Origin: an uncultured Opitutia bacterium
Lineage (GTDB): Bacteria; Verrucomicrobiota; Verrucomicrobiia; Opitutales; Opitutaceae
Reading direction: 5' to 3'
DNA: 64,000 nt
NCBI GenBank assembly: GCA_903861185.1
Contig: CAIOTK010000429.1
Location: 4,099-68,098, forward strand
In this document: positions 18,962 through 36,068 of the stretch, one piece after another
How the letters are laid out: every line of letters starts with the position of its first letter
How positions within the stretch are numbered: the stretch's first letter is position 1
Program-made: the position numbers and the translations under genes
The notes under the pieces: generated by a model
Databases searched by the model: none
What the model was told of the DNA's origin: nothing
The model's input: only the letters and a program-made list of their open reading frames with translations

Positions 18962-20704
18962 ATGCGCCCCCCCCGCATTCTCGCCGTTGACGTCGGCGCC
19001 GGCCATGTCGCCTGCGGGGTTTTCTCCGTCGGCGCGTCGGGCAGGCTGGTGCTACAGCAGTTCGCGCTCGAGCCGCATAGCCCGGACCCCGCCCACGACA
19101 ACCGCTGGTCGCTTGAGGTGGCGCAGTCGCTCGGCGCCATCGTTGCCCGCCGCCGCCTCGGTGGTCTCGCCGCCCTCGCGGTCCCCGGCCACCTTGCGCT
19201 AACCAAGTTCATCAAGACCCCCTCCGTCGCGAAGGAGAAGCGGGGTCGGATCGTCGCCTTCGAGGCGGCGGAGAACATCCCCCACGCCCTCGAGGAGGTC
19301 GTCTGGGACCACGCGGTCATCGCGGACGACGGCTTCGATCTCGAGGTCCTGCTCACCGCCGTGAAGTTCGAGGCGATGCAGTCGCTCTGTGCGGCCGCCG
19401 ATGCCGCGGGGTTCCCGGTCGAGCGCGCCACGCCCGCCGGAGTGGCGCTGTATCACGCTTTCCGCCACACGCATCCGCAGCAGGCGGAGCCGGTGATCGT
19501 CGCGAACGTCGGCGCGCGCACGACCACCTTGCTCTTCGCGGAGGGGGACCGCTACTCGCTCCGCAGCCTCGGGCTGGCGGGCAACGCGGTGACTCAGGCG
19601 ATCGCCGACGAGCTGCGCATCGACTTCGCCTCGGCGGAGACGCTCAAGCTCCAAGTACTCACCGGTCAGACGGATCTGCCGGCCGCCTCGCCCTCGCGCG
19701 CCGCGGTGCAACGCGCGGCAGCCACATTCTGCTCCCGGCTCCAGCTCGAAATCACCCGGTCGGCCGTGAACCACCGGCGGCACACGGGCGCCAGTCCCGC
19801 TGTTGCCGTCTACCTCACGGGAGGCGGCTCCCTGCTCGCCGAGCTCCCCGCGGTTCTCGCCGAAAAGCTTCGGCTGCCGGTCGAGCGCCTGGAGGTCCTG
19901 CGCCAGGTCGACGTGGCCGCGGATGCTCGGGCGGGCGGTGCCGAGGCTTCCGCTGCGGTGCTGGCCGACCTCGTCGGCCTCGCCACCCGCCTGGTGAATC
20001 CCCGCGAGGAGGAGCCCAGCCTACTGCCCCCGGCGCTCACCCGGGCGCTCGCTTTCCGGAAACGCCAGCCAATGTTGCTCGCCGCCGCCGCTGCCGCGAC
20101 CCTCGCGTTTGCGCCCCCCGCTTACTATTACCATCACGTCACGCGCGGCCTGCAGGAGCAGATCTCCCGCTACGACGGCCAGTTGATGCCGCTCCGCTCG
20201 GTGCAGAACCGCAACGAGGGCAATCTCCGCCAGATTGCAGAGGCCGGTCGCCAGATCACCGCGCTCAAGGGCGCCTTCGAGACCAAGGCCAACTGGGTTA
20301 ACTTTTTGGCGAGTCTTCAGGAACGCTTGGTCCAGATCGAGGACGTCTGGCTTGACCGCCTACAGGTGCAACGCCCACCCGTTGAAGAAACGGCTGCGGT
20401 GGACGCCCCCCCGCCTCCCGAGGAGCCCACTCCGGACGGCCAAGCCCCCGCCCCCTCAGCCGTACCCCCGCCAGTGCCGGCGGGTCCCCCCGTCCGCCTC
20501 GCCTTGAGCGGCCGATTGCTCGACGTGAAGAACCCGCAGTCGAAGGTGAGCCCGGAATCGATCGAGCGCGTAAAGCGGCTCCTCGCAGGTTTCGCTGGTT
20601 CGCCGTTCGTGACCGCGGTGGAGAACGAGCGCTTCGACACCAGCCAGAACGGCATCCTGCGCTTTGATTTTACGCTCGTGATTAACCCCCGTCAGACTCT
20701 CTGA
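18962..20704 (+). CDS. pilM: PilM-like actin-fold ATPase fused to a TM + PilN-like periplasmic domain (Amuc_1101-like)
   Basis: ILAVDVGAGH, IPHALEEVVWD, ANVGARTT, VYLTGGGSLL (PilM/FtsA fold); then hydrophobic PMLLAAAAAATLAFAP, a coiled coil, and DVWLDRL...LALSGRL...LRFDFTLVINP. Confidence 0.82.
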   Translation: MRPPRILAVDVGAGHVACGVFSVGASGRLVLQQFALEPHSPDPAHDNRWSLEVAQSLGAIVARRRLGGLAALAVPGHLALTKFIKTPSVAKEKRGRIVAFEAAENIPHALEEVVWDHAVIADDGFDLEVLLTAVKFEAMQSLCAAADAAGFPVERATPAGVALYHAFRHTHPQQAEPVIVANVGARTTTLLFAEGDRYSLRSLGLAGNAVTQAIADELRIDFASAETLKLQVLTGQTDLPAASPSRAAVQRAAATFCSRLQLEITRSAVNHRRHTGASPAVAVYLTGGGSLLAELPAVLAEKLRLPVERLEVLRQVDVAADARAGGAEASAAVLADLVGLATRLVNPREEEPSLLPPALTRALAFRKRQPMLLAAAAAATLAFAPPAYYYHHVTRGLQEQISRYDGQLMPLRSVQNRNEGNLRQIAEAGRQITALKGAFETKANWVNFLASLQERLVQIEDVWLDRLQVQRPPVEETAAVDAPPPPEEPTPDGQAPAPSAVPPPVPAGPPVRLALSGRLLDVKNPQSKVSPESIERVKRLLAGFAGSPFVTAVENERFDTSQNGILRFDFTLVINPRQTL

Positions 20705-22669: not shown

Positions 22670-25441
22670 ATGAATACCCGCTCCGTTCCCGTGTCCCTGT
22701 CCGTCGCGCTGGCCGCCGCCCTCTGCTGCTCGGCCCCCCTCGCGCGCGATGTCCGGGCACAAACCCCCACGGACACCAAGATTCGCCTGATGGCCGAAGC
22801 GCTCCGCGCGCGTGACGCGGGAGACCTGACGGCGGCCCAGGCGGCCCTAACGCGGCTCGCGGCGCTCAGCCCGGACGATCGCGCTGTGCAGCGACTCCGC
22901 GCCGAGGTCGAGGCGCAGGCGCGGACTCGGCCCGCTTCCGCCGCCGTCGCGGCAGCGCCCGCCCGCCCGGCCCCGGCGATGGTCGAGGTGCGGATCCCGG
23001 ATCCGGCCCAGCCGCCGGCGCCCCCCGCCCCGAGCCAAGAACAGGAAGCCGAGGCTCTGGCCCGGGCGGAGACCGCCCGCTTGGAGCAACTCGTCGCCAC
23101 CGCCCAGACCCAGCTTTCGACCGCCCGGACCCAGGCCCGCGGCGGCCGCTACGAAGAGGCGATCACCACCGTGGATGCCGCGCTCGCGGCGCTCCCCGCG
23201 AATCCGGTCACCCAGAAGGTCGCCGGTGACCTCCGGGCCGAGAAAGCCTCCGCGCTGCTCGACCGAGCCCAGGCCCTGGTCCGCGGCGGCGACATCGCCG
23301 GTTCCCGCGCCGCGATGATCGCTCACGACCAGCTCGCCAGCCCGAACGCCCGCGCCGCCGGGATCGAGCGCCAGATCGCCCGCGCCGAGACGCGCCCGCT
23401 GGCCGCCGGGGTCGATCCCGCCTTCGTTTCGGATCGCGCGGCGACGGCGCAGCTGATCGCCAAGGGCCGGGCCCAGTACGTGGCGGGTGACCTCGATGGC
23501 GCCCAAGAGACCTTTCGGGGCATCGAGGCGCAGGAACCCGACAATACGGTCGCGAAGGGGTTTCTGCTCCGGATCGCCGAGGAGAAGACCGAGATGGGCG
23601 CATTGAACCGCGAGAAGACCCGCGCCCAGCTGCTCGAGGAAGTCGCCAAGAGCTGGCAGCGGCCCGGGATTTACCAGGAGCGCCCCCGTGAAACGGATCG
23701 CGCCGCCGCCGTGGGCCCGCTCGCCCAGAAGTTGGCCCAGATCACCCTGCCAGCGGTCAGCTGGACGCGGGCCCCGATCGGCGACGTGGTTGCCGCTCTG
23801 AGCGCGATCTCCGAAGAGTTCGACACCACCGGCGCCTCGGGTGCTAAGGGCGTCAACGTCGTCCTGATCGACACCAGCAACAAGAATCCGCTCGTCACGC
23901 TCACCCTGCGCAACGCCACCCTGAAGCGTGTCCTCGACTTCGTTACGGAGGCGGTCGGCTATCAGTACGAGGTGCAGGCTGACGCGGTGGTGGTCCGCCC
24001 GGGCGGTGAGACCACGACGCTCGAGACTCAGTTCTTCCCGGTCACCCGGGCCACTGTGCTCCGGATGACCGGCATCGCCGGTGCGGCCTCCGCTAGCGCG
24101 TCCCGCGAGGGTGGGGCGGCGAGCGAGGGCGAGGCTGCCGCGCCTGGAGGCGAGGCAGCGGCGATGAAGGCCTTCCTGCAGCAGGCGGGCGTCAGCTTCA
24201 CGGTGGAGGGCAGCTCGCTGGCCTATGACGGCTCGGCGATCCTCGTCACCCAGACCGCGCGCAACAACGAGCGCATCCGCAATATCCTCGCCCGTTACAA
24301 CGACGTGCGCCAGGTCGAGATCGAAGCCAAGTTTATGGAGGTGCAGGAGGGCGCGCTCGAGGAGCTCGGCGTCACCTGGAACCTCAACCGCCGCGGCATC
24401 GCCCGGGTCAACCCGTCCACCGGCGCGCCGGTGCTCGACGTGAACGGCCGCCAAATCTTCGACCCGCAGGAGACCTACACCAGCGCCGGAGTCACGCGCC
24501 CCCTCGTCGGCGCCTTCCCCAGCACTTCGAACGCCAATGCCCTCGTGATCAAGGATCCGGCGATTTCGCTGTCGGAGACGGACCCGAACCAGACGCAGGG
24601 CCAGCTGCGGGTCCCGGTCTCGCCGACCGGTGTGCCCGGCAGCGTCCAGCTCGCGGCCACCGCCAACGCCCTCGCGAACATCGTGGGCTTCGTGGGTGAG
24701 TTCGACGTCAGCGCGGCGGTTCGCGCCCTCTCCCAGAAGCAGGGTACGGACCTGCTCAGCTCGCCCAAGTTGACGGTGCTCTCCGGCAACCCTGCCAACA
24801 TCACGGTCGCCCAGGAGCTGCGGTATCCGCAGAGCTACGGCGAAATCCAGAGCCAGGTCGGCACCGGCGCGGTTGCTGGTGGCGCGGCCGGCGTGACGAT
24901 TACCGCGGGCACGCCGCAGGAGTTTACCGCGCGCAATGTCGGCGTGGAGCTGAAAGTCACCCCGACCGTGGAGGAGGACGATTACAGCATCAGCCTCGAT
25001 CTGAACCCCCGCGTCACCGAATTCGAGGGCTTTGTCGAGTATGGCGGCCCGAGCGTGGCCATCTCGGGTACGACCACGGTTACGGTCCCCCCCGGTTTCT
25101 ACCAACCGATCTTCTCGGTCCGCGACATCTCGACCAAGGTGACGATTTGGGACGGGGCGACGCTCGTGATGGGCGGCCTGACCCGGGAGGAGGTCAAGAA
25201 GGTCAACGATAAGATCCCGTTCTTCGGGGACCTCCCGCTCGTGGGCCGGCTCTTCCGCTCGAAGGGCGAGAGCGCCCAGAAGCGTAACCTGCTCATCTTC
25301 GTGACCGCGAATCTGGTCAGCCCCGGCGGTTCGCCGAAGAAGCAGAACCTAAAGAGTACCCCGGCGAACTCGCTCTTCCAGAACCCGACGATCGTGACCC
25401 CGGCCAGCGCCGAGCCGCGCACCCGCAGCGGCGCGAAGTAA
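22670..25441 (+). CDS. Secretin (PilQ/GspD family) with N-terminal TPR-like extension (Amuc_1098-like)
   Basis: Signal peptide, helical TPR-like repeats, N-domain (LTLRNATLKRVLDFV), QVEIEAKFMEV, LLSSPKLTVLSG, RNVGVELKVTP, GATLVMGGL, KIPFFGDLPLVGRLFRS...KRNLLIFVTA. Confidence 0.93.
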   Translation: MNTRSVPVSLSVALAAALCCSAPLARDVRAQTPTDTKIRLMAEALRARDAGDLTAAQAALTRLAALSPDDRAVQRLRAEVEAQARTRPASAAVAAAPARPAPAMVEVRIPDPAQPPAPPAPSQEQEAEALARAETARLEQLVATAQTQLSTARTQARGGRYEEAITTVDAALAALPANPVTQKVAGDLRAEKASALLDRAQALVRGGDIAGSRAAMIAHDQLASPNARAAGIERQIARAETRPLAAGVDPAFVSDRAATAQLIAKGRAQYVAGDLDGAQETFRGIEAQEPDNTVAKGFLLRIAEEKTEMGALNREKTRAQLLEEVAKSWQRPGIYQERPRETDRAAAVGPLAQKLAQITLPAVSWTRAPIGDVVAALSAISEEFDTTGASGAKGVNVVLIDTSNKNPLVTLTLRNATLKRVLDFVTEAVGYQYEVQADAVVVRPGGETTTLETQFFPVTRATVLRMTGIAGAASASASREGGAASEGEAAAPGGEAAAMKAFLQQAGVSFTVEGSSLAYDGSAILVTQTARNNERIRNILARYNDVRQVEIEAKFMEVQEGALEELGVTWNLNRRGIARVNPSTGAPVLDVNGRQIFDPQETYTSAGVTRPLVGAFPSTSNANALVIKDPAISLSETDPNQTQGQLRVPVSPTGVPGSVQLAATANALANIVGFVGEFDVSAAVRALSQKQGTDLLSSPKLTVLSGNPANITVAQELRYPQSYGEIQSQVGTGAVAGGAAGVTITAGTPQEFTARNVGVELKVTPTVEEDDYSISLDLNPRVTEFEGFVEYGGPSVAISGTTTVTVPPGFYQPIFSVRDISTKVTIWDGATLVMGGLTREEVKKVNDKIPFFGDLPLVGRLFRSKGESAQKRNLLIFVTANLVSPGGSPKKQNLKSTPANSLFQNPTIVTPASAEPRTRSGAK

Positions 25442-25459: not shown

Positions 25460-28400
25460 ATGCCTCCCTTCTTCCGCCGCGTCTCGTCGGTGCTGGCCGG
25501 CCTCGCCGCGCTGGCCGCCGTCCCCGGTGCACTCGGCACCCCGACGATCTCCTTCACCCCTGGTTCCTTCCCGGCGACGGGTTCGCCGGCCGGCGTGGTC
25601 AGCACCCCGGCCGGGCTGGTCATCAGCGTCAACGCCTCGCCCACCGCTTCGGCCTCCATCGTTGGAGTCGTCGTCTCCGTCAACGGGACCAACCTCGGGA
25701 CCGCCACCGGCTCCTCGCCGTTCACGGTGCCGTGGTTCCCGAGCGTTGCGGGAACCTATACGATCTCCGCCACGGTCACGGACACCTCTGCCAACGCCAC
25801 CGGCGCCGGGGCCTCGGTCAACAATGCCACCGCCAACAGCATTGTCACCTTGGGCGCGGCCCGCGCCGCCCAAGTGCTCGCGCCGGCGAGTGGCGCCTCG
25901 TTAGTGCTCGGTTCACGCGTCTTTCTTCGCTCCTCTGCGGCGCTCTCCGACGGGGTGGTACAGCAGGTCGAATTTGTCCTCGATGCTGGAACCCCCGGCG
26001 AGTCCGTCCTCGCGGCGGCCACCCAGCCGCCCTACAACGTTTCCTACTTGGTGGGTGGCCTTGCGCCCGGCGCGCATACCCTCACGGCCCGCGCGACGGC
26101 CAACACCGGCGGCGGTGCCACTCTCTTCGATTCCCCTGCGGTCAGCTTCAACGTCGTCTCCGCCGTTGGCGTGCCACCCACGGTCGCAATCACCGCACCG
26201 GTCGCCAGCGCGTTCCTCGCGACTAGCACGGCCGTCACCCTGACCGCCACCGCCTCCGACGCGGACGGTTTCATCCCGAGTTCCTCGGGCGGCGGTGTCA
26301 CCTTCTTCGCCGATGGCGAGCCGGTTGGGACCGACCTCACCGCACCGTATTCGGTCACGTGGACTCCGTCCGTCGCCAAGAGCTATTCGCTGGTCGCGCA
26401 GGCGGTCGATGACCGCGGTAACGTCGGCCAGTCCGCGCCGGTTACGGTCAGTGCCGTCGCCTCGCTACCCACGGTCACCGTCTCGGCGCCGGCCACCGCT
26501 ACCGCCGGCACCGCCGCCACGATTACCGCCGCCGCCACGGCCAGCACCGGCGCCACGGTCACGTCGGTTCAGTTCCTCGTGAACGGCGTCGCGCTGGGCG
26601 CAGCTTTGAACGCCCCGCCCTACAGCGTGGTGTGGACCCCTTCCGTTCTGGGCAGCAACGCGATCACGGCGCAGGTCACCGATTCCGTCGGGATTATCGC
26701 CACTTCCGCGTCCGCGAACGTCACGGTATCCACCGCGAGTGGCACCGCGGTCAGCCTGCTGGCCCCGATCAACGGCGCGACGCTGCCGCAGGGCTCACAG
26801 GTGTTCCTGCGCTCCACGGCGGCGATCGCCGGCAGCATCGTCAGCCGCGTGGATTACTACCTGGACGGGGTCGCGCTGCCCGGCGCCTCCGTGACCCAGG
26901 CCCCGTACAATGTCGCCTACACGGTGACGGCGCCCGCCGGCCCCCACACCCTGTTCGCCCGGGCGGTGGCCAGCGACGGCGCGACGGTGGATTCCTCCAC
27001 GGCCGCCATCACGGTCGTGCCGCCGGTGGGCGTCTCACCCACGGTTTCGCTGACCGCGCCGGCTTCCGGTTCGTTCGTGGCCACCGGTGCCTCGGTTTCG
27101 CTGACCGCGCTAGCGGCGGACGCCGACGGCTTCATCTCGCCGAACGCGGGCGGGGGCGTGACGTTTTTCGCCGACGGCGAGCCGATTGGCAGTGATCTCG
27201 TGGCGCCCTACGCCACCACCTGGACCCCGGCCGTGGCCAAGGCCTACTCGCTGCGGGCGCAGACCGTGGACGACAAGGGCAACCTGACGCTCTCCGCCCC
27301 GGTCACGGTGACCGCGCTCGCCGCTTTGCCCACCGTGTCGCTTGTCTCACCGCCGACGGTCGCCACCGTCGGAGCGCCGGTTACTTTGACCGCGACGGCC
27401 AACGCCAGCCCCGGTGCGACGGTGACTTCGGTGGTCTTCTTGGCTAACGGAACGCCGATTGGTGTGCCCGCGGCGGTCTCGCCCTACACGGTCTCGTGGA
27501 CCCCGGCCGCGAGCGGCGCCGTCTCGCTGACCGCACAGGTCACGGATTCCGCCGGCGCTGTCATCACCTCCTCGGCCTCCGCGGTCACCGTCGGTTCGGC
27601 GGCAGCCTCGGTCGCCCTGATCGCGCCGACGACCGGTTCGGTGGTCGCGGTGGGCACCCCGATCGATGTCAGCGCGACGGCCACCGCCTCGGCGCCCGGC
27701 GCCTCCGTGGCCAGCGTGCAGTTTCTCGCCGGGACCTCGGTCATCGGTACCGCCACGGTGCCGACCGGGGGTGTTTACTCCGTCAAGTGGACCCCGACGT
27801 CCGGCAACACGACGCTCACGGCGCGGGTCACTGATACCCTAGGGAGCACGGTCACTTCTACCGGCGTCACGGTCACCGGCGTCGCCCAGACGGCCGTGAC
27901 CCTGACCGCGCCGGCGAGCAATGCCTCGGCGACGCTTGGGGTGCCGTTCACGTTGACCGCCTCCGCCTCGGCTACTCCGGGTACCGTGGTGACTCAGGTG
28001 GAGTTTTTCGCTGGGGCGACCTCGCTTGGCGTGGTCCCCGCTACGCCCTTCACGCTGGCGTGGACTCCGGCCGCAGTCGGCACCTTCGCGATCAAGGCGC
28101 GGGTCACCGATTCCGCCGGCACCACCGCTGAATCCGCCTCCGTCAATGTCACGGTCGGGCAGTCTTCCTCGGCCTTCGTCGCCGTTACGAGCCCCGTTCC
28201 GGGCGCAGTCGTTACGGTCGGTGTACCCGCAGAGGTGACGGCCACGGCCACCGCGCCCACGGCGGGCGCCATCGTCAGTCAGGTGCAGTTCCTCGCCGGC
28301 ACCTCGGTGATCGGCACGGTGACGACCCCGTTGGGCGGGGTGTACTCGGTCAAATGGACCCCGACGGCGGGCAACACCACTCTCACCGCTCGCGTGACCG

Positions 28401-31400
28401 ACACCTTGGGCGGCACCGCCACCTCGTCTGGCGTGACTGTCACCGGTGTGGTTGCGACGAGTGTCTCGCTCACCGCACCCGCCAACAACTCCACCGCCGT
28501 AGTCGGAACTGCGGTGAACCTCACGGCCTCTGCCGCGGCCACCGCGGGGGCGATTATCACCCAAGTCGAGTTTCTCGCCGCGGGCGTGCCGGTTGGGACG
28601 GTGACCACCGCGCCGTTCACCCTAGCTTGGACGCCCGCCGCCTCGGGTCCCACGGCCGTGACCGCTCGTGCGACCGATTCGTTCGGTAACATCGTCACCT
28701 CCGCCGCGATCAACGTGACGGTCAATGCGGCCCCGCCTACGATCGTCCTCACTAGCCCGACCCCAGGTAACCAGCTGAACGCCGGTACGCCGGTGCCGAT
28801 CACGGCGACGGTCAACCCCGGTTCCGCCGGAGCGGCCATCACCCGGGTGCAGTTCCTCGCGGGCAGCACGGTCGTCTCTACGGTCGCCGGCGATCCTACC
28901 ACCGCGACTTACACGGGCACTTGGACCCCGGCCTCCGCCGGCGACTTCAACCTCAGTGCCCGCGTGACCGACGCCAACGGCACGGTAGTCACCTCGGCGA
29001 CCGTCAACGTCACGGTGATCACCGTGAGCACCCAGGTCGTCATCACCAGTCCGACCGCGGGTGGCGCTCAGGTGGGCACCCCGCTCGTCTTCAGCGCGAA
29101 TGTCGACGCTGCCCCTGGAGTCACGATCACCCAGGTGCAGTTCCTCGCTGGTTCCACGGTGGTCGCGACGCTGCCGGGCAATGCCGCCGCAACGAGCTAC
29201 AGCACCACTTGGACGCCCACCGCCGCGGGTTCGTACAACCTCACGGTGCGGACGACCGACTCGAACGGCGTGGTGCGCAACTCGGCCGCGGTCCAAGTCG
29301 TGGCCCAGGCCACGACGGTCAGCCTCTCGCTGCTGCCCAATAACACCAGCATCGCGGTGAACTCCTCGCGGATGATCAGCGCCAGCGCCTCGGCGCCCGC
29401 GGGCGTCGCCTCGGTGGAGTTCTACTACGTGGGGGCCTCCGGCATTACCCTGATCGGCACGGACACCGCCCCGCCGTATAACATCCTCTTTACCGCGCCC
29501 GATGAGCCCGGGCGCCGGGTGCTGCGGGCCCGGGCCTACGACATCTTGGGGCAGTCGGTGGATTCGGCCGACTTCACGATCAACATCACCGGACAGATCG
29601 GGGAACCGCCGGTGCTGGGCATTCTCACCCCGGTCAGCGGCTCCTTTGTCGCTGCCAACAACACCACGACCATCTCCGGTACGGCGACCGACGCCGACGG
29701 CTCGATCAGTAGCATCCAAGTGTTCGTTAATGGCACCACCGCCGGCCTCGGCGGCGCGGGCGTCACTGGTGTCACCAACGGGGTCTGGTCCGTCAGTTGG
29801 ACGCCCACCTCCTCAGGTGTCGCCTCGATTTCCGCTATCGCCACCGACAATGCGGGCAACTCTGTTGCCGCGCCCGCGGTGGGAGTGAACATTTCGGATA
29901 GCACGTCCCCGTTCATTAACCTCTCCCTTTCGCCCCGCACCGCCGCGGCGGCCGCCAGCACGACGCTGCCCAGCGGCGCGGTACGCACGCTGGTCGCGGA
30001 TGTCGCCGCGTCCTCCGGACGCGCCGTGGTGCGGGTCGAGTTCTTCGTGGATGGCACCAAGGTCGGCGAGGATACCTCCGCCCCCTACACGCACCGCTAC
30101 ACCGCGCCGGCCCTCGCCGCCGGGGAGCTCTCCCGCCCGTACGTGCTGTCCGCCCGGGCAACCGATAACGCGGGCACCGCCCGCGACGTCCAGGTTTCGG
30201 TGCTGGTCATCTCGCCGGTCGGCGCGCCGCCCACGGTGAACCTCCTCACCCCGGCCAACGGGGCTTCTACCACCCCGGGGTCCGCCATCAGCCTCGCTGC
30301 CACCTCCACCTCCATCGACAGCACAATCGCGAGCGTCCAGTTCTACGTGAACGGTAGCCCCGCGCCGGTCAACGGAGGTAACGGCATCACGGCCGCGCCG
30401 TACGTAACCACCTTCGTGCCGACTCTGCCCGGCTCCTATGTCATCGACGCGATCGCGACCGATGCCCGCGGCAATACGGCGGTCTCGAACTCGGTGACGG
30501 TGTCGGCCGCCTTGCCGGTGCCGACGATCGTCTTCACCGCGCCCAATCCGAACGCCACCGCCCGCGCCACGCCCGGGGTCCCGCTCACCCTCGCGGCCAC
30601 CCCCTCCGTCCTCGGCGGCGGCGCCCAGTTCCTGCTGGTGGAGTTTCTCCTGGATGGCGTGCAGATCGGGGCGGACACGACCGCCCCCTACACCTTCTCG
30701 TGGATCCCGACGGCCGCCCAACTCGGGGAGCGGGTCCTGACTGCGCGCGTCACTGACCTCAACGCCCAGGTCGTCACTACGGCTCCGCTCACGGTCAACG
30801 TCGCCAATGTCGTCGGTTCGCCGCCGACGGTCACGGTCTCCGCGACGCCCATCCCGGGCAACGGCCTCCAGACTGCTTCGACCATCAACTTCCAGGCCAC
30901 GGCCGTCGCCACCGGCACCGGCTCCACCCTGCGTAATGTCGAAATCTTCCTCAATGACGTCAGCATCGGCCTCGCGACTCGCGAGCAGACCACGAACTTC
31001 TACCGCCGCGCGTTCGACCTCAGCCAATTCGACTTCAGCACGATCACGCCGACGATCAACGAGAACACCGGCGCGGTGACTTACCCGGTGCGGCTTTACG
31101 CCATCGCCCGTGACAGCAACAACAACCAGACGGTCTCGCCCACGGTCAACCTCACCATCTTCCCGGCCACCAGCGCTCCGCCGACCATTCAGGTCCAGGC
31201 GTTGACCCCGACGAACATCACCGCCGGCACCCAGTTCTTCATGCAGGCGAACCTGAACGACCCGGATGGCAACGTGAGCACGGTCCAGCTCTACGCCAAC
31301 GGCAGCCTGGTGGGGAACTTCCCGAACCCGCAGCAGGGCCAGCTCCTGACCTACACCGCCAACACGGCGGGCCGGTTCAACCTCTATGCGGTCGTCACGG

Positions 31401-34213
31401 ACGAGACGGGCAACACCGCCGTCTCTACGCCCTCGATCGTCATCAATGTCACCGCCGTCACCGCTCCCACCACCGCGATCACCCGGCCCGAGGACAACAG
31501 TACCGCAACGACCGTCGGTTCCCCGGTCTTCCTCGAGGGCACCGCCGTCAATGCCGTGACGACCCAAGTTCCCACTCTTCAGTTCATCGCGACCGCGGCC
31601 GGCGGCGCCCGCCAAGTCATCACCGGCACCCGCGTCGGCACCACCACCAGCTACCGCGCGATTTGGACCCCCACCAACCCCGACACCTATACGATCACAA
31701 CCCAGGCCTCCGTCGGCAATGTGCAGGGCACGAGCACGACCTCCCGCCGGGTGGTGGTCAGCGATGTCGTGGGCCTCGCCCCGACGATCAGCCTGACGCG
31801 TTCGCCCGGGGTCCTCGGCTACCCGACGTCGGCCCAGACCGCCTCGTCTGCCGACTTCGCCGCCACCGCGCAGGATCCCGATGGCGCCGTCGTCGCCGTC
31901 GAGTTCTTCCTCAATCGATTCAGCATCGGTCAGGCGCGCCGGGATCCGCAGGGCAATACCTGGCGCCTGCAAGCATCGTTCGCGGGGCTCCAGCCCGGGT
32001 CGACCGAGATCGTGGCCCTCGCCCGCGATAGCTCCGGCAACGTCGTCCCCTCGGCCACGGGATTCATCAACGTGACCGCCGCCGCCAGCATCGCGCCTTC
32101 GATCACGATCACCCCGTCAACGACCAATCCGGCCTTTAATCGTCAGGTCCAGCTCCGCGCCAACGCCCGGGACACCGACGGCACGGTGACGAGCGTTCAG
32201 TACTTCGCCAACGCGCTGCCCATCACGTCCTCGACCAACGGCGGCTCTCTGTTCCTCTCCAATTGGACTCCCACCTCCGAGGGCAAGTACCTGCTCTGGG
32301 CGCTCGCCACGGACAGCTCGGGCATCACGACCGTCTCGCCGACGCTCGAGCTCAACGTCCGCCGCAATAATCCCGTCCTCGAGAACGCCGCCTTCATTCT
32401 GCAGACCTACCAGGACATCGCGAACACCACGACGATCAACCCGCTGGTGTTCGATGATCTGGACGAGCGGCTCGGTTCCGGCGCGCTCACCCGGGCCGAT
32501 TTCGTCGCCTCCCTCCTCGACCAGCCTGGCTTCCTCGCTCCGGTCCAGTTCCTTGCGACCTATCAGGTGCTGATGGGCCGCTGGCCGACCCCGCAGGACT
32601 ACTCGAACTTCCTCGCCGTCGCCCGAGGTAGTCTCAGCAACGCCGTGGGCGGGGTGCTCTTTGCGAATGATTACTTCGCCAAGTACGGGACCGTTCCTAC
32701 GACAGGGCTGCTCAATAGCCCGACGAGCGCCATCCCGGCGCGCACGTTCTTGGATCGTCTCTGGGCCAATGCCGGTTCCAGCCCGTCCACCAACCGGGAG
32801 ACCGATCTCGTCCGGTTCATGAGTAACAACGTGCTGAGCACGAACATCGGTCGCGGGTACAACGTGATCGGGGTGAATCAGGCCGTCGCCGAGTTCGTCG
32901 TGAATACGAACGCAGCGAATACCGCCCTCTGGAACCGAGCCCGGGCCGCCGCGATCTTCTATCAGCTCGCCCGCCCGCCCGTCACGGTGACTTACGAGGA
33001 GATCACGGCCCGCGTCGATGCGCTCCTGCGTCTGCCTGACACGAAGGCGATCGTCGACGCCGTGCTGAAGGACGAGCTCTACGGCTACCGCTATGTGACG
33101 ATCACCCGACACCCGCAGTCGCTGGTCGTGTCGCCGCGTTCCGGCGCGATCTTCTCGGTCGAGGCTCAAGGTGCTCCCCCGCTGGTCTATCAGTGGCTCC
33201 TGAACGGCGCCCCGATTCCCGGCGCCACCAGCCCCGTGCTGAGCCTCACGAACGTGGATACGAGCCGCGTCGGCACCTACACCGCGGTCATCACCTCCGC
33301 GGCAGGAGTCGCCACCTCCGATCCGGCGACGCTCACGCTCTCGAACGTCACCACCCGGCTCGCGAACATCTCCACGCGTGGCCAGACCTCGGCGGGTGCC
33401 AACGTGCTGATCGGTGGGTTCGTGGTGAACGCCCCGGCGGGTCAGACCCGTCAGATGCTGATCCGGGTCGTCGGCCCGACGCTCGCGGGTGCCCCCTTCA
33501 ACCTAGCGAATACCCTGAACAACCCGTCGCTCGCCCTCTACGTTGGCACGAACCAGAACCCTGTGCTCACGAACGACGACTGGGGGACGCAGGCCGCCGG
33601 CGCTGCCCAAGTTCAGGCGATCCAGCAGGCGACCAACCGTGCCGCCGCGTTCGCCCTGCAGGCCAATTCCCGCGACGCGGCGATTCTCGCCACCCTGCCC
33701 GCCGGACCTTACACGGTTCAAGCTCAGGTCGGGCCCGGTTCGACCAACCCCTCTGGCTTGGTGCTAATCGAGGTCTACGATGTCACCCAAGGGGGTCCGG
33801 CCGCCCCCAAGGCGATCAACGTCTCCACCCGCGGCGCGGTCGGAACGGGAGCCAACTCCCTGATCGCCGGCTTCGTGGTCACCGGCCAGGTCTCCCGCCG
33901 GATGCTCATCCGCGGTGCGGGTCCGACCCTCGCCAACCTCGGAGTTCCCGGGGTGCTCGCCGACCCGGTACTCACCCTTTCCGCCCAGTCGACGGGCCAG
34001 GTCCTTCGGACTAACGATAACTGGGGCACGGGCGAGGAAGCGGGCATCATTGCCAGCGCGGCTTCCGCCGCCGGGGCCTTCCCGTTCCCGGCCGGCAGTC
34101 GCGACGCGGCGATGATCGTGATGCTTCCCCCCGGCGCCTATACGGTCCAGCTGGCCGGCGTGGGCGGCGGTACCGGGGTTGGCATCGTCGAGGTCTACGA
34201 CGTCGATCCCTGA
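25460..34213 (+). CDS. Giant secreted Ig-repeat surface protein (2917 aa): 23 bacterial Ig (Big_7-like) domains, a helical S-layer/DUF4214-like region, an I-set Ig and two tandem C-terminal 'NISTR' domains
   Basis: Signal peptide MPPFFRRVSSVLAGLAALAAVPGALG. About 95-100-aa repeats with consensus PTVxLTAP...V.FF.xG..xG....PYxxxWTP...G...LxAxxxD..G....S..VxVxV, counted by eye as 23. QWLLNGAPIPGATSPVL I-set Ig. Duplicated C-terminal domain. Confidence 0.9.
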   Translation: MPPFFRRVSSVLAGLAALAAVPGALGTPTISFTPGSFPATGSPAGVVSTPAGLVISVNASPTASASIVGVVVSVNGTNLGTATGSSPFTVPWFPSVAGTYTISATVTDTSANATGAGASVNNATANSIVTLGAARAAQVLAPASGASLVLGSRVFLRSSAALSDGVVQQVEFVLDAGTPGESVLAAATQPPYNVSYLVGGLAPGAHTLTARATANTGGGATLFDSPAVSFNVVSAVGVPPTVAITAPVASAFLATSTAVTLTATASDADGFIPSSSGGGVTFFADGEPVGTDLTAPYSVTWTPSVAKSYSLVAQAVDDRGNVGQSAPVTVSAVASLPTVTVSAPATATAGTAATITAAATASTGATVTSVQFLVNGVALGAALNAPPYSVVWTPSVLGSNAITAQVTDSVGIIATSASANVTVSTASGTAVSLLAPINGATLPQGSQVFLRSTAAIAGSIVSRVDYYLDGVALPGASVTQAPYNVAYTVTAPAGPHTLFARAVASDGATVDSSTAAITVVPPVGVSPTVSLTAPASGSFVATGASVSLTALAADADGFISPNAGGGVTFFADGEPIGSDLVAPYATTWTPAVAKAYSLRAQTVDDKGNLTLSAPVTVTALAALPTVSLVSPPTVATVGAPVTLTATANASPGATVTSVVFLANGTPIGVPAAVSPYTVSWTPAASGAVSLTAQVTDSAGAVITSSASAVTVGSAAASVALIAPTTGSVVAVGTPIDVSATATASAPGASVASVQFLAGTSVIGTATVPTGGVYSVKWTPTSGNTTLTARVTDTLGSTVTSTGVTVTGVAQTAVTLTAPASNASATLGVPFTLTASASATPGTVVTQVEFFAGATSLGVVPATPFTLAWTPAAVGTFAIKARVTDSAGTTAESASVNVTVGQSSSAFVAVTSPVPGAVVTVGVPAEVTATATAPTAGAIVSQVQFLAGTSVIGTVTTPLGGVYSVKWTPTAGNTTLTARVTDTLGGTATSSGVTVTGVVATSVSLTAPANNSTAVVGTAVNLTASAAATAGAIITQVEFLAAGVPVGTVTTAPFTLAWTPAASGPTAVTARATDSFGNIVTSAAINVTVNAAPPTIVLTSPTPGNQLNAGTPVPITATVNPGSAGAAITRVQFLAGSTVVSTVAGDPTTATYTGTWTPASAGDFNLSARVTDANGTVVTSATVNVTVITVSTQVVITSPTAGGAQVGTPLVFSANVDAAPGVTITQVQFLAGSTVVATLPGNAAATSYSTTWTPTAAGSYNLTVRTTDSNGVVRNSAAVQVVAQATTVSLSLLPNNTSIAVNSSRMISASASAPAGVASVEFYYVGASGITLIGTDTAPPYNILFTAPDEPGRRVLRARAYDILGQSVDSADFTINITGQIGEPPVLGILTPVSGSFVAANNTTTISGTATDADGSISSIQVFVNGTTAGLGGAGVTGVTNGVWSVSWTPTSSGVASISAIATDNAGNSVAAPAVGVNISDSTSPFINLSLSPRTAAAAASTTLPSGAVRTLVADVAASSGRAVVRVEFFVDGTKVGEDTSAPYTHRYTAPALAAGELSRPYVLSARATDNAGTARDVQVSVLVISPVGAPPTVNLLTPANGASTTPGSAISLAATSTSIDSTIASVQFYVNGSPAPVNGGNGITAAPYVTTFVPTLPGSYVIDAIATDARGNTAVSNSVTVSAALPVPTIVFTAPNPNATARATPGVPLTLAATPSVLGGGAQFLLVEFLLDGVQIGADTTAPYTFSWIPTAAQLGERVLTARVTDLNAQVVTTAPLTVNVANVVGSPPTVTVSATPIPGNGLQTASTINFQATAVATGTGSTLRNVEIFLNDVSIGLATREQTTNFYRRAFDLSQFDFSTITPTINENTGAVTYPVRLYAIARDSNNNQTVSPTVNLTIFPATSAPPTIQVQALTPTNITAGTQFFMQANLNDPDGNVSTVQLYANGSLVGNFPNPQQGQLLTYTANTAGRFNLYAVVTDETGNTAVSTPSIVINVTAVTAPTTAITRPEDNSTATTVGSPVFLEGTAVNAVTTQVPTLQFIATAAGGARQVITGTRVGTTTSYRAIWTPTNPDTYTITTQASVGNVQGTSTTSRRVVVSDVVGLAPTISLTRSPGVLGYPTSAQTASSADFAATAQDPDGAVVAVEFFLNRFSIGQARRDPQGNTWRLQASFAGLQPGSTEIVALARDSSGNVVPSATGFINVTAAASIAPSITITPSTTNPAFNRQVQLRANARDTDGTVTSVQYFANALPITSSTNGGSLFLSNWTPTSEGKYLLWALATDSSGITTVSPTLELNVRRNNPVLENAAFILQTYQDIANTTTINPLVFDDLDERLGSGALTRADFVASLLDQPGFLAPVQFLATYQVLMGRWPTPQDYSNFLAVARGSLSNAVGGVLFANDYFAKYGTVPTTGLLNSPTSAIPARTFLDRLWANAGSSPSTNRETDLVRFMSNNVLSTNIGRGYNVIGVNQAVAEFVVNTNAANTALWNRARAAAIFYQLARPPVTVTYEEITARVDALLRLPDTKAIVDAVLKDELYGYRYVTITRHPQSLVVSPRSGAIFSVEAQGAPPLVYQWLLNGAPIPGATSPVLSLTNVDTSRVGTYTAVITSAAGVATSDPATLTLSNVTTRLANISTRGQTSAGANVLIGGFVVNAPAGQTRQMLIRVVGPTLAGAPFNLANTLNNPSLALYVGTNQNPVLTNDDWGTQAAGAAQVQAIQQATNRAAAFALQANSRDAAILATLPAGPYTVQAQVGPGSTNPSGLVLIEVYDVTQGGPAAPKAINVSTRGAVGTGANSLIAGFVVTGQVSRRMLIRGAGPTLANLGVPGVLADPVLTLSAQSTGQVLRTNDNWGTGEEAGIIASAASAAGAFPFPAGSRDAAMIVMLPPGAYTVQLAGVGGGTGVGIVEVYDVDP
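25538..32365 (+). repeat. Array of 23 tandem Ig-domain repeats with nested block duplications
   Basis: FFADGE recurs at 26303 and 27164 (861 nt, a 3-domain period). VKWTPT recurs at 27782 and 28349 (567 nt, a 2-domain period). Confidence 0.85.
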
Positions 34214-34334: not shown

Positions 34335-36068
34335 TTACTCCGCTACCGTGAGCGCGCGGCGAAAGACCGCCGGGGAGAGCTTGGCCGGTAAGACGTGGGT
34401 CTCCCAGAGCACGCTGGAGCTTTCCCGACGCTGGTACCGGGTGTCATCCGCGGTGCGCGCGATGCGTTCGAAGGAAGCGGGAGCCTCGACGGTCGGCCGC
34501 GTCTGGTCCGTCAGCAGCGTCGCACGCTGCAGCACTGCAAGGTAAAGCCCGTCCCGGCGGCGCTCGGCCTGCAGGAAGCGTAGGTACGCGTCGAGGCTGC
34601 GGAGCTCAGCCGCGGGAACGCTACGAGGTCGGCCGGTGAGTTCGTCGAGTACCCGCCCGGGCGCCAGAACGAGCTCGAGGGTGCGACCAGACCAGTCAGC
34701 AGCGACGGGAACCGGCACGCTGAGGTGGGCGTTGCGCCCTTGGGCGTCCCGCCACGCAAGGTCCGCGGTCAGTTCGGCGCCTGGCGCCACCGTGGCCCGG
34801 GAGAGCACGAACCGCTCGATCGTGATGCCGGGGAGATCGTGGAGGGCCTCGACCTCTAGACGGATGGATTCGGGAAAGACCCGGGCCAGTGGGTTCTGCA
34901 GCACCGCGGAAAGGGATTGCACGATCTCCCCGAGCGCCTGCGCGAACCCCTGCGCGCCCGCGTAGAGCACGTTTTGCCGCCATTCGAGCCCCCCGGGAAA
35001 GGTTAGGTGGCTGGCCACCCGAAAACCCTCGTGGAAGCCCGCATCGTTCGCCCCGAGCACCGCTTGGCTGATTCCGGCCCCGACTACCAGCGGCGCCAGC
35101 TGCGAATGGCGCGCGGCGGCAAAGCGGAGCGGGGTCGCGCCCCCGGGCCGCGTAATCTCGACCGGGATCATCGCCGGTCCGGGCCCCAACTCGCCGGCCA
35201 CCGCGGAAAGCCGGTCCTGCCGGATGGTACCGATGACGGGTCCGATGTTCGCCACCTTCACCGACTGCATCTGCGAGGGCAAAATGGTCAGCACCTCGGC
35301 GTGGCAGAGCGGCAGGGCCACCTCGCCGAGCGCGAGCAAGGGATGGCCGAAAGCGACGATCTCACGCCCGCGGACCAGCGATACGGTACCCGTTGCCGCG
35401 AGGGTGATATCCCCGGTCGCCAAGGCCACGGCCACCGCTCCGCCGGGGACCAACCGGGGTTCCGCCGCCGCGGTGCCGCCCTGGGTCGAGGTCACGACGC
35501 CGCCCGGGAGGACTGGACCGATACCGTGTTCGGCCAGCAAGGGTGCCAGAGCCGCCGCCGCGACGGGGGAGAGGCCGGCCAAACTGAAGGCGGGCTGGAG
35601 GGGCGCAGTAGGGGACAGGCCACCGGAGCCGCCGCCGAGGCGGGTTCCAGAGGCGGGCAGGGTGCGGACCTCCTCGAGGTCCGCCACCGGGGTGAAGCCC
35701 GCGTGCCGCACCGTTTCGAAACGCTGGATCTGGTAACTCAGCGCCCCGGCCAGCTTGCCGTCGATGTACAGCGGGCTGCCGCTCATCCCGGCCACCGCTC
35801 CCATCGGTTGCACGCGCGGATCGGTCAGTTCGCAGACGATCAGGGATTTCCCGGGCCCGAGACCGTTCTGGATCACGCCCGTCACCACGACCCCAAAGGG
35901 CTCCGGTTCCGTGCCCCGGAAGACGGTCCAGACCTCACCCCGCCGGCCCGGGGTCAGCTCGGACAGCGGTAAGGACGGGGCATCCAGCGGGGGCGCGGCC
36001 AGCAGGACCGAAGACCCGGCGAGCAGGGCCGCAAGCCACCGGGGATCAAAGGCCGGCGATCGCATCAC
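34335..36068 (-). CDS. SpoIVB-like serine peptidase (family S55)
   Basis: Signal peptide, [15 protein letters not shown], catalytic [23 protein letters not shown], second domain IVAFGHP. Start is GTG 36068 or ATG 36065. Confidence 0.85.

Follow-up and report, generated by a model that had tools for sequence, protein, structure and literature searches.

PPC domains and the clostridial collagen-binding domains (CBDs) are β-jelly-roll sandwiches found in tandem at the C-terminal end of proteins secreted via Sec, among them subtilases and metalloproteases; this fold class is already known, as are PPC-like C-terminal extensions on secreted proteins in general. Two further C-terminal devices invite comparison: the C-terminal domain (CTD) of the type IX secretion system (T9SS) of Bacteroidota, a folded β-sandwich at the end of secreted or surface proteins that are otherwise unrelated, dozens to hundreds of them within a single lineage, and the PEP-CTERM/exosortase tag, likewise lineage-expanded and C-terminal on secreted proteins, which is a motif of ~25 residues that combines a transmembrane helix with a basic tail. 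Dockerins and SLH domains, finally, are duplicated, position-flexible modules that tie unrelated secreted proteins to a common scaffold or cell-wall polymer. Here we describe a tandem domain at the end of a giant secreted protein of an uncultured Opitutia bacterium (family Opitutaceae, phylum Verrucomicrobiota; assembly GCA_903861185.1), encoded in a window of 64,000 nt, by which we mean the whole stretch of DNA analysed (contig CAIOTK010000429.1, positions 4,099 to 68,098, forward strand).

What is new here is the family itself, which has no Pfam or NCBIfam model, its nearly constant tandem form with a helix insertion, the dozens of non-peptidase passengers to which it is fused at either terminus, its confinement to Opitutaceae at a copy number of 50 to more than 100 per genome, and its link to modules of a secretin and a giant protein. 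We favour, with confidence and doubt about evenly balanced, the reading that the pair is a portable non-catalytic binding module that retains exported proteins at the producer's own cell surface. Soil, freshwater and termite guts all harbour Opitutaceae in abundance, and the handling of secreted proteins by these bacteria is, to our knowledge, essentially unstudied.

The tandem units and their predicted fold

The giant protein is encoded by an open reading frame (ORF) of 2917 residues at 25460–34213 on the forward strand, taken from the ORF list and its translation. From a signal-peptide-like N-terminus (MPPFFRRVSSVLAGLAALAAVPGALG) it runs through Big_7 immunoglobulin (Ig) repeats (Pfam, E = 5.6e-165, 22 matched stretches), a non-Ig region and an Ig_3/I-set domain (residues 2547–2626; 33098–33337, forward strand; Pfam Ig_3 E = 1.2e-6, I-set E = 5.4e-4), which abuts the tandem pair on its upstream side. 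With boundaries set by a hidden Markov model (HMM) built from the units, unit 1 spans residues 2633–2780 (148 residues; 33356–33799, forward strand) and unit 2 residues 2784–2917 (134 residues; 33809–34210, forward strand), followed directly by the stop codon at 34211–34213. Translated, 33356–34213 closes on ...GIVEVYDVDP-stop and contains the motifs from which the initial annotation had read two homologous C-terminal units; the two are indeed 45% identical over 120 columns (BLASTP, E = 5e-22).

AlphaFold2, supplied with paralogue alignments, models the pair with a pLDDT of 93.3 and a pTM of 0.88, a confidence which implies a fixed orientation between the predicted units, and unit 2 alone with a pLDDT of 95.9. 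The predicted unit consists of eight or nine β-strands and an 11-residue helix. In Foldseek searches, the nearest PDB structure to the pair is the tandem collagen-binding domain of ColG (5iku, E = 1.8e-7); the single unit has as its top match the ColG CBD s3b (1nqj_A, E = 2e-4, TM 0.55 on the query and 0.74 on the target, probability 1.00) and also matches the PPC domain of the Bacillus anthracis collagenase (5sv5, TM 0.68 on the target, probability 1.00). Next come the C-terminal claudin-binding domain of the Clostridium perfringens enterotoxin and the C-terminal jelly-rolls of the subtilases Tk-SP, KP-43 and SubHal. The ColG CBD, the PPC domains and the enterotoxin C-terminal domain are known binding modules.

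At the level of sequence the relationship is remote. PF04151, the Pfam model of PPC, is matched neither by the pair nor by the units at E ≤ 1 (hmmscan; its gathering score is 25.9 bits), and a six-frame search of the whole source genome with it gave zero matches. Aligned by hhalign to 28 PF04151 domains collected from Verrucomicrobiota genomes, the unit alignment scores 27.7 (E = 2.6e-4, probability 42%, 60 columns), which is over the controls (a reversed alignment and 20 column shuffles, all with a score ≤12.6 and E ≥ 0.14) and under the usual confidence level. The register agrees with the fold: “DPxLxL” lies over the PPC “DxDLYL,” “PGxYTxxV” over “GxYYxxV,” and the helix falls as an insertion. 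In the protease E495, the PPC residues D26, D28, Y30, and Y/W65 of those same motifs are required for protein binding (PMC3327674). Over 84 paralogous units, the conserved polar and aromatic positions are N4, R35, D52-P53, N69-D70-x-W72, D99, Y111, and E128-x-Y130.

Taken together, the model and the alignment suggest a much-diverged and enlarged branch of the PPC/CBD superfamily, one that lies outside PF04151 by the Pfam criterion. The initial annotation had held that a match to a characterised family such as PPC would speak against a dedicated sorting domain; a PPC/CBD-like predicted fold, together with a weak profile match to PF04151 above the controls, is what was found. The differences from PPC are nonetheless considerable. 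The unit has ~135 residues with an inserted helix (residues 78–88), compared with ~100–115 in PPC, and a motif set of its own (N-x-S-x-R, R-x-x-G-P-x-L, N-D-x-W, and S-R-D-A-A), while the “D..L.L” and “G.Y...V” motifs are in register in both. Unlike PPC, it is nearly always a fixed pair, sometimes N-terminal, on passengers reaching far beyond peptidases, and among the sampled genomes it is limited to Opitutaceae and one other family.

A smaller feature of the units is the near-invariant asparagine of the first strand, which sits within an N-x-S/T pattern (NIS, NVS, NLS; e.g., at 33365–33373 and 33818–33826). Because alanine at times stands in for the serine, we read the pattern as probably structural and not as a glycosylation sequon.

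Family size, lineage, and passengers

The source genome (4.0 Mb in 514 contigs, 94% complete) was searched as stop-to-stop ORFs. An iterated HMM found 88 units in 50 ORFs on ~45 contigs, with complete pairs in 36 of the 50 ORFs and single units, or units cut by contig ends, in the remainder. A profile of 84 units, run against 1.84 billion cluster representatives, matched 19,227 proteins at E ≤ 1e-3 and 10,830 at E ≤ 1e-30. The domain is present in all 24 sampled genomes of the genus, several of which have at least 103 matches, in 78 of 121 Opitutaceae genomes, and in 44 of the 63 sampled genera of the family; it is absent from all 16 genomes of sixteen other families in the order. In a sample of the phylum, 14 of 301 genomes were positive, made up of 12 of 26 family members and 2 of 275 others, both of the latter belonging to one other family of the same class. 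The family is thus large and sharply lineage-restricted.

Neither the pair nor the single units found anything relevant in Pfam (hmmscan, E ≤ 1) or NCBIfam, and PDB sequences gave nothing credible for the pair by phmmer or profile search; the profile matches at E 0.1–10, to LAO-binding protein and BamC, were set aside as chance. Close relatives in a collection of 5.8 billion proteins, from Opitutaceae metagenome-assembled genomes and one such genome of Chthoniobacterales, are named “hypothetical protein” and have no precomputed Pfam domain across the pair, and literature searches on the domain in Opitutaceae returned nothing. The initial annotation had described a domain of no known assigned function closing many unrelated secreted Opitutaceae proteins. 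The HMM counts and the empty database searches agree with that description on both points.

As to position, the last strand runs to the stop codon in 39 of the 45 source-genome ORFs with a judgeable 3′ end; the others comprise five with N-terminal pairs and one with a 43-residue tail, with a further five not judgeable at contig ends. Much the same holds among the best 150 of the 19,227 representatives, where the pair is C-terminal in 141, N-terminal in 5 and internal in 4, with two units per protein in 101, four in 38, three in 9 and six in 2. Positions other than the C-terminus do occur, as N-terminal pairs in 5 of the 50 ORFs and as occasional internal ones; the initial annotation had named internal positions as telling against a sorting domain. 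A conserved C-terminal tail, YELP or YEVP, ends 20 of the 34 tails tabulated, and the linker ahead of unit 1 is 3–6 residues long, often ...PG|RL; comparison of these linkers revealed no conserved cleavage motif upstream of unit 1.

By a simple heuristic, most of the 5′-complete domain ORFs start with a Sec-type signal peptide. In the five ORFs with N-terminal pairs, the first strand of unit 1 comes directly behind the signal-peptide cleavage region (e.g., ...APGAAAQGAY|LVNIATR), and the passengers downstream are Kelch (L013), Metallophos/PhoD (L017) and Calx-beta+CHRD+DUF1800 (L019, L027, L030). Taken as a whole, the passengers include Ig_3/I-set, CHRD, DUF1800, PhoD/Metallophos, phytase-like, PKD and matrixin domains; propellers of the SGL/NHL, PQQ, Kelch and DUF5122 kinds; and subtilase S8, sulfatase, pectinesterase, CotH+LTD, Big_7 giants and YDG/MBG repeats. 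Since Ig_3 occurs in 17 of the 50 domain-bearing ORFs, the earlier statement that the domain usually follows an I-set Ig was too strong.

Between the A and B units of the pairs, mean identities are 0.42 (A–A), 0.46 (B–B), and 0.43 (A–B). The nearest neighbour carries the same label in 56 of 74 cases and the best split separates 44 of 74; this position signal is too weak for two ancient clades, an arrangement we considered and rejected.

Two arrangements in the source genome stand apart. An ORF of 301 residues (L022, contig C25:179–1081) consists of a signal peptide and one pair, without any passenger. On contig C191 (1001–13085; L013–L017), five domain genes follow one another on the same strand, two with N-terminal pairs (the Kelch and Metallophos/PhoD proteins above) and three with C-terminal ones, an arrangement suggestive of local duplication or shuffling at a hot spot.

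Secretin neighbourhood and candidate roles

Just ahead of the giant gene, as the initial annotation had pointed out, lies a secretin gene, which is separate from the domain: a TPR-STN-secretin at 22670–25441 on the forward strand (Pfam Secretin PF00263, E = 3.7e-35, with TPR and STN matches), ending 18 nt before the giant-protein ORF. The adjacency recurs. The source genome has four secretin genes, two of which are directly followed by a giant pair-bearing ORF, the second being on contig C297 (2–8872; L107, L031), where a 2323-residue Big_7 giant with a terminal pair starts after 3 nt. In five complete relatives, a same-strand giant pair-bearing ORF stands right behind 5 of 17 secretin genes (L091, L093, L094, L101, L104), and three more secretins have pair genes at 3–9 kb. 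Overall, then, a pair-bearing giant lies directly behind 7 of the 21 secretins examined, and this enrichment is real because the pair is present in only ~1–2% of genes; inheritance of two modules, and not a large number of independent events, is the probable cause. The two-gene module of a secretin and a giant Big_7 protein within a few nucleotides occurs with two secretin types (~920 residues, TPR-STN; ~630 residues), twice in the source genome and five times across three of the five complete relatives.

A third secretin of the source genome is of GspD type and is followed by a GspE-like ORF, with the pair carried by a divergent neighbour gene (contig C85:23710–30149; L047, L108). GspD-type secretins with a GspE-like ATPase, and with pair genes divergent or nearby (0.5–9 kb), were seen in four genomes in all (further loci L099, L105, L106).

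The module is older than the pair. Orthologues of the window secretin are followed by a pair-bearing giant in genomes G147, G121, G154, and G102, and in the first three, all domain-positive, the orthologous giant ends in the pair with an identical ...EVYDVDP tail. In the domain-negative G091 and G136, Ig-repeat giants of 3142 and 3159 residues also stand behind the secretin (reverse-oriented; L054, 96–9521, and L055, 161–9637, respectively), with 28–30% identity over the repeats, another C-terminus and no pair; G088 and G081 have no giant gene at the secretin locus. From the giants of G091 and G136 it follows that the secretin-giant module predates the pair and works without it. Nor does the domain track the secretin in the phylogenetic profile which the initial annotation had proposed as a check: the window-type secretin was detected in 59 of the 78 family genomes that have the domain and in 30 of the 43 that lack it, counts from a stricter first pass in which absences are soft, and the second type occurs in over half of the genomes lacking the domain. 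Strict co-occurrence of the domain with either type was accordingly rejected, and the link does not look obligatory.

In the reading we favour, each unit is by its predicted fold a divergent β-jelly-roll of the PPC/clostridial-CBD type, ~135 residues long with its inserted α-helix, and two form a rigid pair. Opitutaceae carry this portable extracytoplasmic module on 50 or more distinct Sec-exported proteins in a genome, usually as the last element of the protein and sometimes as the first behind the signal peptide. A putative conserved polar/aromatic face, from N4 to Y130, would bind a single shared ligand that probably belongs to the producer's own envelope or matrix, and the pair would thereby hold exported enzymes and giant Ig adhesins at the surface following secretin-dependent export. 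A binding module with one ligand is suggested by the predicted fold and the structures closest to it, by the fixed tandem, and by the conserved polar/aromatic positions; a ligand in the producer's own envelope or matrix is favoured because the passengers share no substrate and the module is confined to one lineage, in which a large part of the exoproteome carries it. Retention is also what the occurrence of the pair at either terminus, the arrays of four and six units, the pair-only protein, and the pair-free secretin giants support. The lower number of PEP-CTERM tags in genomes with the domain (PEP-CTERM matches per genome, median 3.5 compared with 11 in domain-negative Opitutaceae, the genomes being related and not independent) fits a division of labour between anchoring devices. 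The source genome itself has two ORFs matching TIGR02595, both other than the giant protein, and when orthologues of the pectinesterase and CotH passengers were sought in five domain-free, PEP-CTERM-rich genomes, the one homologue found ends without a tag and so tells little either way.

Several observations weigh against retention. Some 90% of the modules run right up to the stop codon and share a conserved tail, a bias beyond what a purely modular binding domain would call for. Within 5 kb of the 50 domain genes, no recurrent neighbour emerged as a candidate partner or processing enzyme, the largest cluster comprising 4 ORFs. The PEP-CTERM trend may be phylogeny alone. The classical PPC domain is frequently cut away once the protein has been secreted (PMC3327674), and by analogy the pair could be only transiently present.

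The first of these points belongs equally to a tentative alternative, one we regard as possible if somewhat unlikely: that the folded pair is a conformational signal read in the periplasm by a secretin-based pathway resembling the type II secretion system (T2SS), perhaps then cleaved, and so the Opitutaceae counterpart of the T9SS CTD. Because type II systems export proteins already folded, a folded tag could serve at the N- or the C-terminus. The conserved terminal tail, the presence of the pair on unrelated Sec-dependent passengers in tens to more than 100 copies per genome, as with T9SS CTDs, the giants behind a third of the secretins examined (7 of 21), and the pair genes near GspD/GspE-type clusters in four genomes would all suit such a tag, as would the reported usual cleavage of PPC domains post-secretion and their possible role as secretion aids (PMC3327674). 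The secretin distribution does not suit it: the window type is as common without the domain as with it, the second type is widespread in domain-negative genomes, and the giants of G091 and G136 are secretin-linked and pair-free. Moreover, no dedicated machinery was found co-located with the 50 domain genes, pair-only proteins and arrays of 4–6 units would be odd for a tag, and the PPC domains of the protease MCP-03 are reported, in work cited in PMC3327674, to be unnecessary for secretion. The N-terminal and internal pairs contradict a sorting signal bound strictly to the C-terminus, as in T9SS-CTD, PEP-CTERM or LPXTG tags, and so do the four- and six-unit arrays and the pair-only L022. The known devices differ in other respects as well: the top structural match of the pair is of a different fold class from the T9SS CTD, it has no NCBIfam T9SS-CTD match, and it is duplicated, without co-varying machinery found; compared with PEP-CTERM, it is a folded 270 residues ending in YELP or YDVDP. 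To dockerins and SLH domains the likeness would lie only in the way of working, since the pair has no sequence or structural relation to them and no cohesin-like partner was identified. Of the sorting or anchoring role put forward in the initial annotation, what is supported is a portable, unannotated and lineage-expanded domain, mostly C-terminal on varied Sec passengers, with a recurring secretin neighbour; the data agree better with anchoring or binding than with export by a signal like the T9SS CTD or PEP-CTERM. A bolder form of the export idea, which we find doubtful, makes the pair a folded, position-independent address label of an unrecognised display or export route, read by the secretin machinery or by an envelope receptor. 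Were it true, most of the exoproteome (50 to more than 100 proteins per genome) would bear a functional T9SS-CTD analogue built on a PPC scaffold, and the route would be one that, within the Verrucomicrobiota sampled, only Opitutaceae and a single further family have.

Binding might instead be directed outward, the pair acting like a CBD or a carbohydrate-binding module (CBM) on an environmental polymer (polysaccharide, protein or mineral-associated organic matter) and concentrating scavenging enzymes there. The nearest structures are substrate-binding domains (ColG CBD, PPC), PPC domains bind insoluble or protein substrates (PMC3327674, PMC6168687), and many passengers are hydrolases (sulfatase, pectinesterase, phosphatases, proteases). 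We nevertheless judge this unlikely: the passengers' substrates are chemically unrelated, many passengers lack enzyme domains altogether (Ig-only giants, propellers, CHRD, DUF1800), and sharp restriction to one soil and freshwater family is unexpected of a general polymer binder. No Pfam CBM family matches the pair, and the 25 most frequent passenger families include zero glycoside hydrolases, one pectinesterase and one sulfatase having been seen. It is more improbable still that the pair is an intramolecular helper, stabilising, folding or inhibiting its own passenger with no external ligand, as certain subtilase C-terminal jelly-rolls are described as doing. The structural matches to such jelly-rolls in Tk-SP, KP-43 and SubHal are in keeping with such a role, as are the inhibitory PPC domain of Vibrio cholerae Lap (PMC10709122) and the PPC domains of MCP-03, described as stabilising in work cited in PMC3327674; the occurrence of one module on more than 30 unrelated folds and at either terminus, a pair-only protein, and polar/aromatic residues strongly conserved across paralogues argue against it.

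A family model would annotate a large portion of verrucomicrobial exoproteomes that is now “hypothetical,” given ~50 ORFs here and 19,227 representatives. If the pair does serve in surface retention, or as an export label, it would offer a handle on how enzymes and giant adhesins are displayed, and a portable surface-display tag. The module of secretin and giant Ig protein is a concrete genetic system for probing the function of the pair.

Other features of the window

Farther upstream, a PilM-like gene (18962–20704, forward strand; Pfam PilM_2, E = 2.8e-18) forms a co-oriented cluster with the secretin gene. Downstream and convergent with the giant gene, an ORF of 577 residues (34335–36068, reverse strand) has a sub-threshold match to Peptidase_S55 (SpoIVB), at E = 4.6e-5 and 24 bits against a cut-off of 25.

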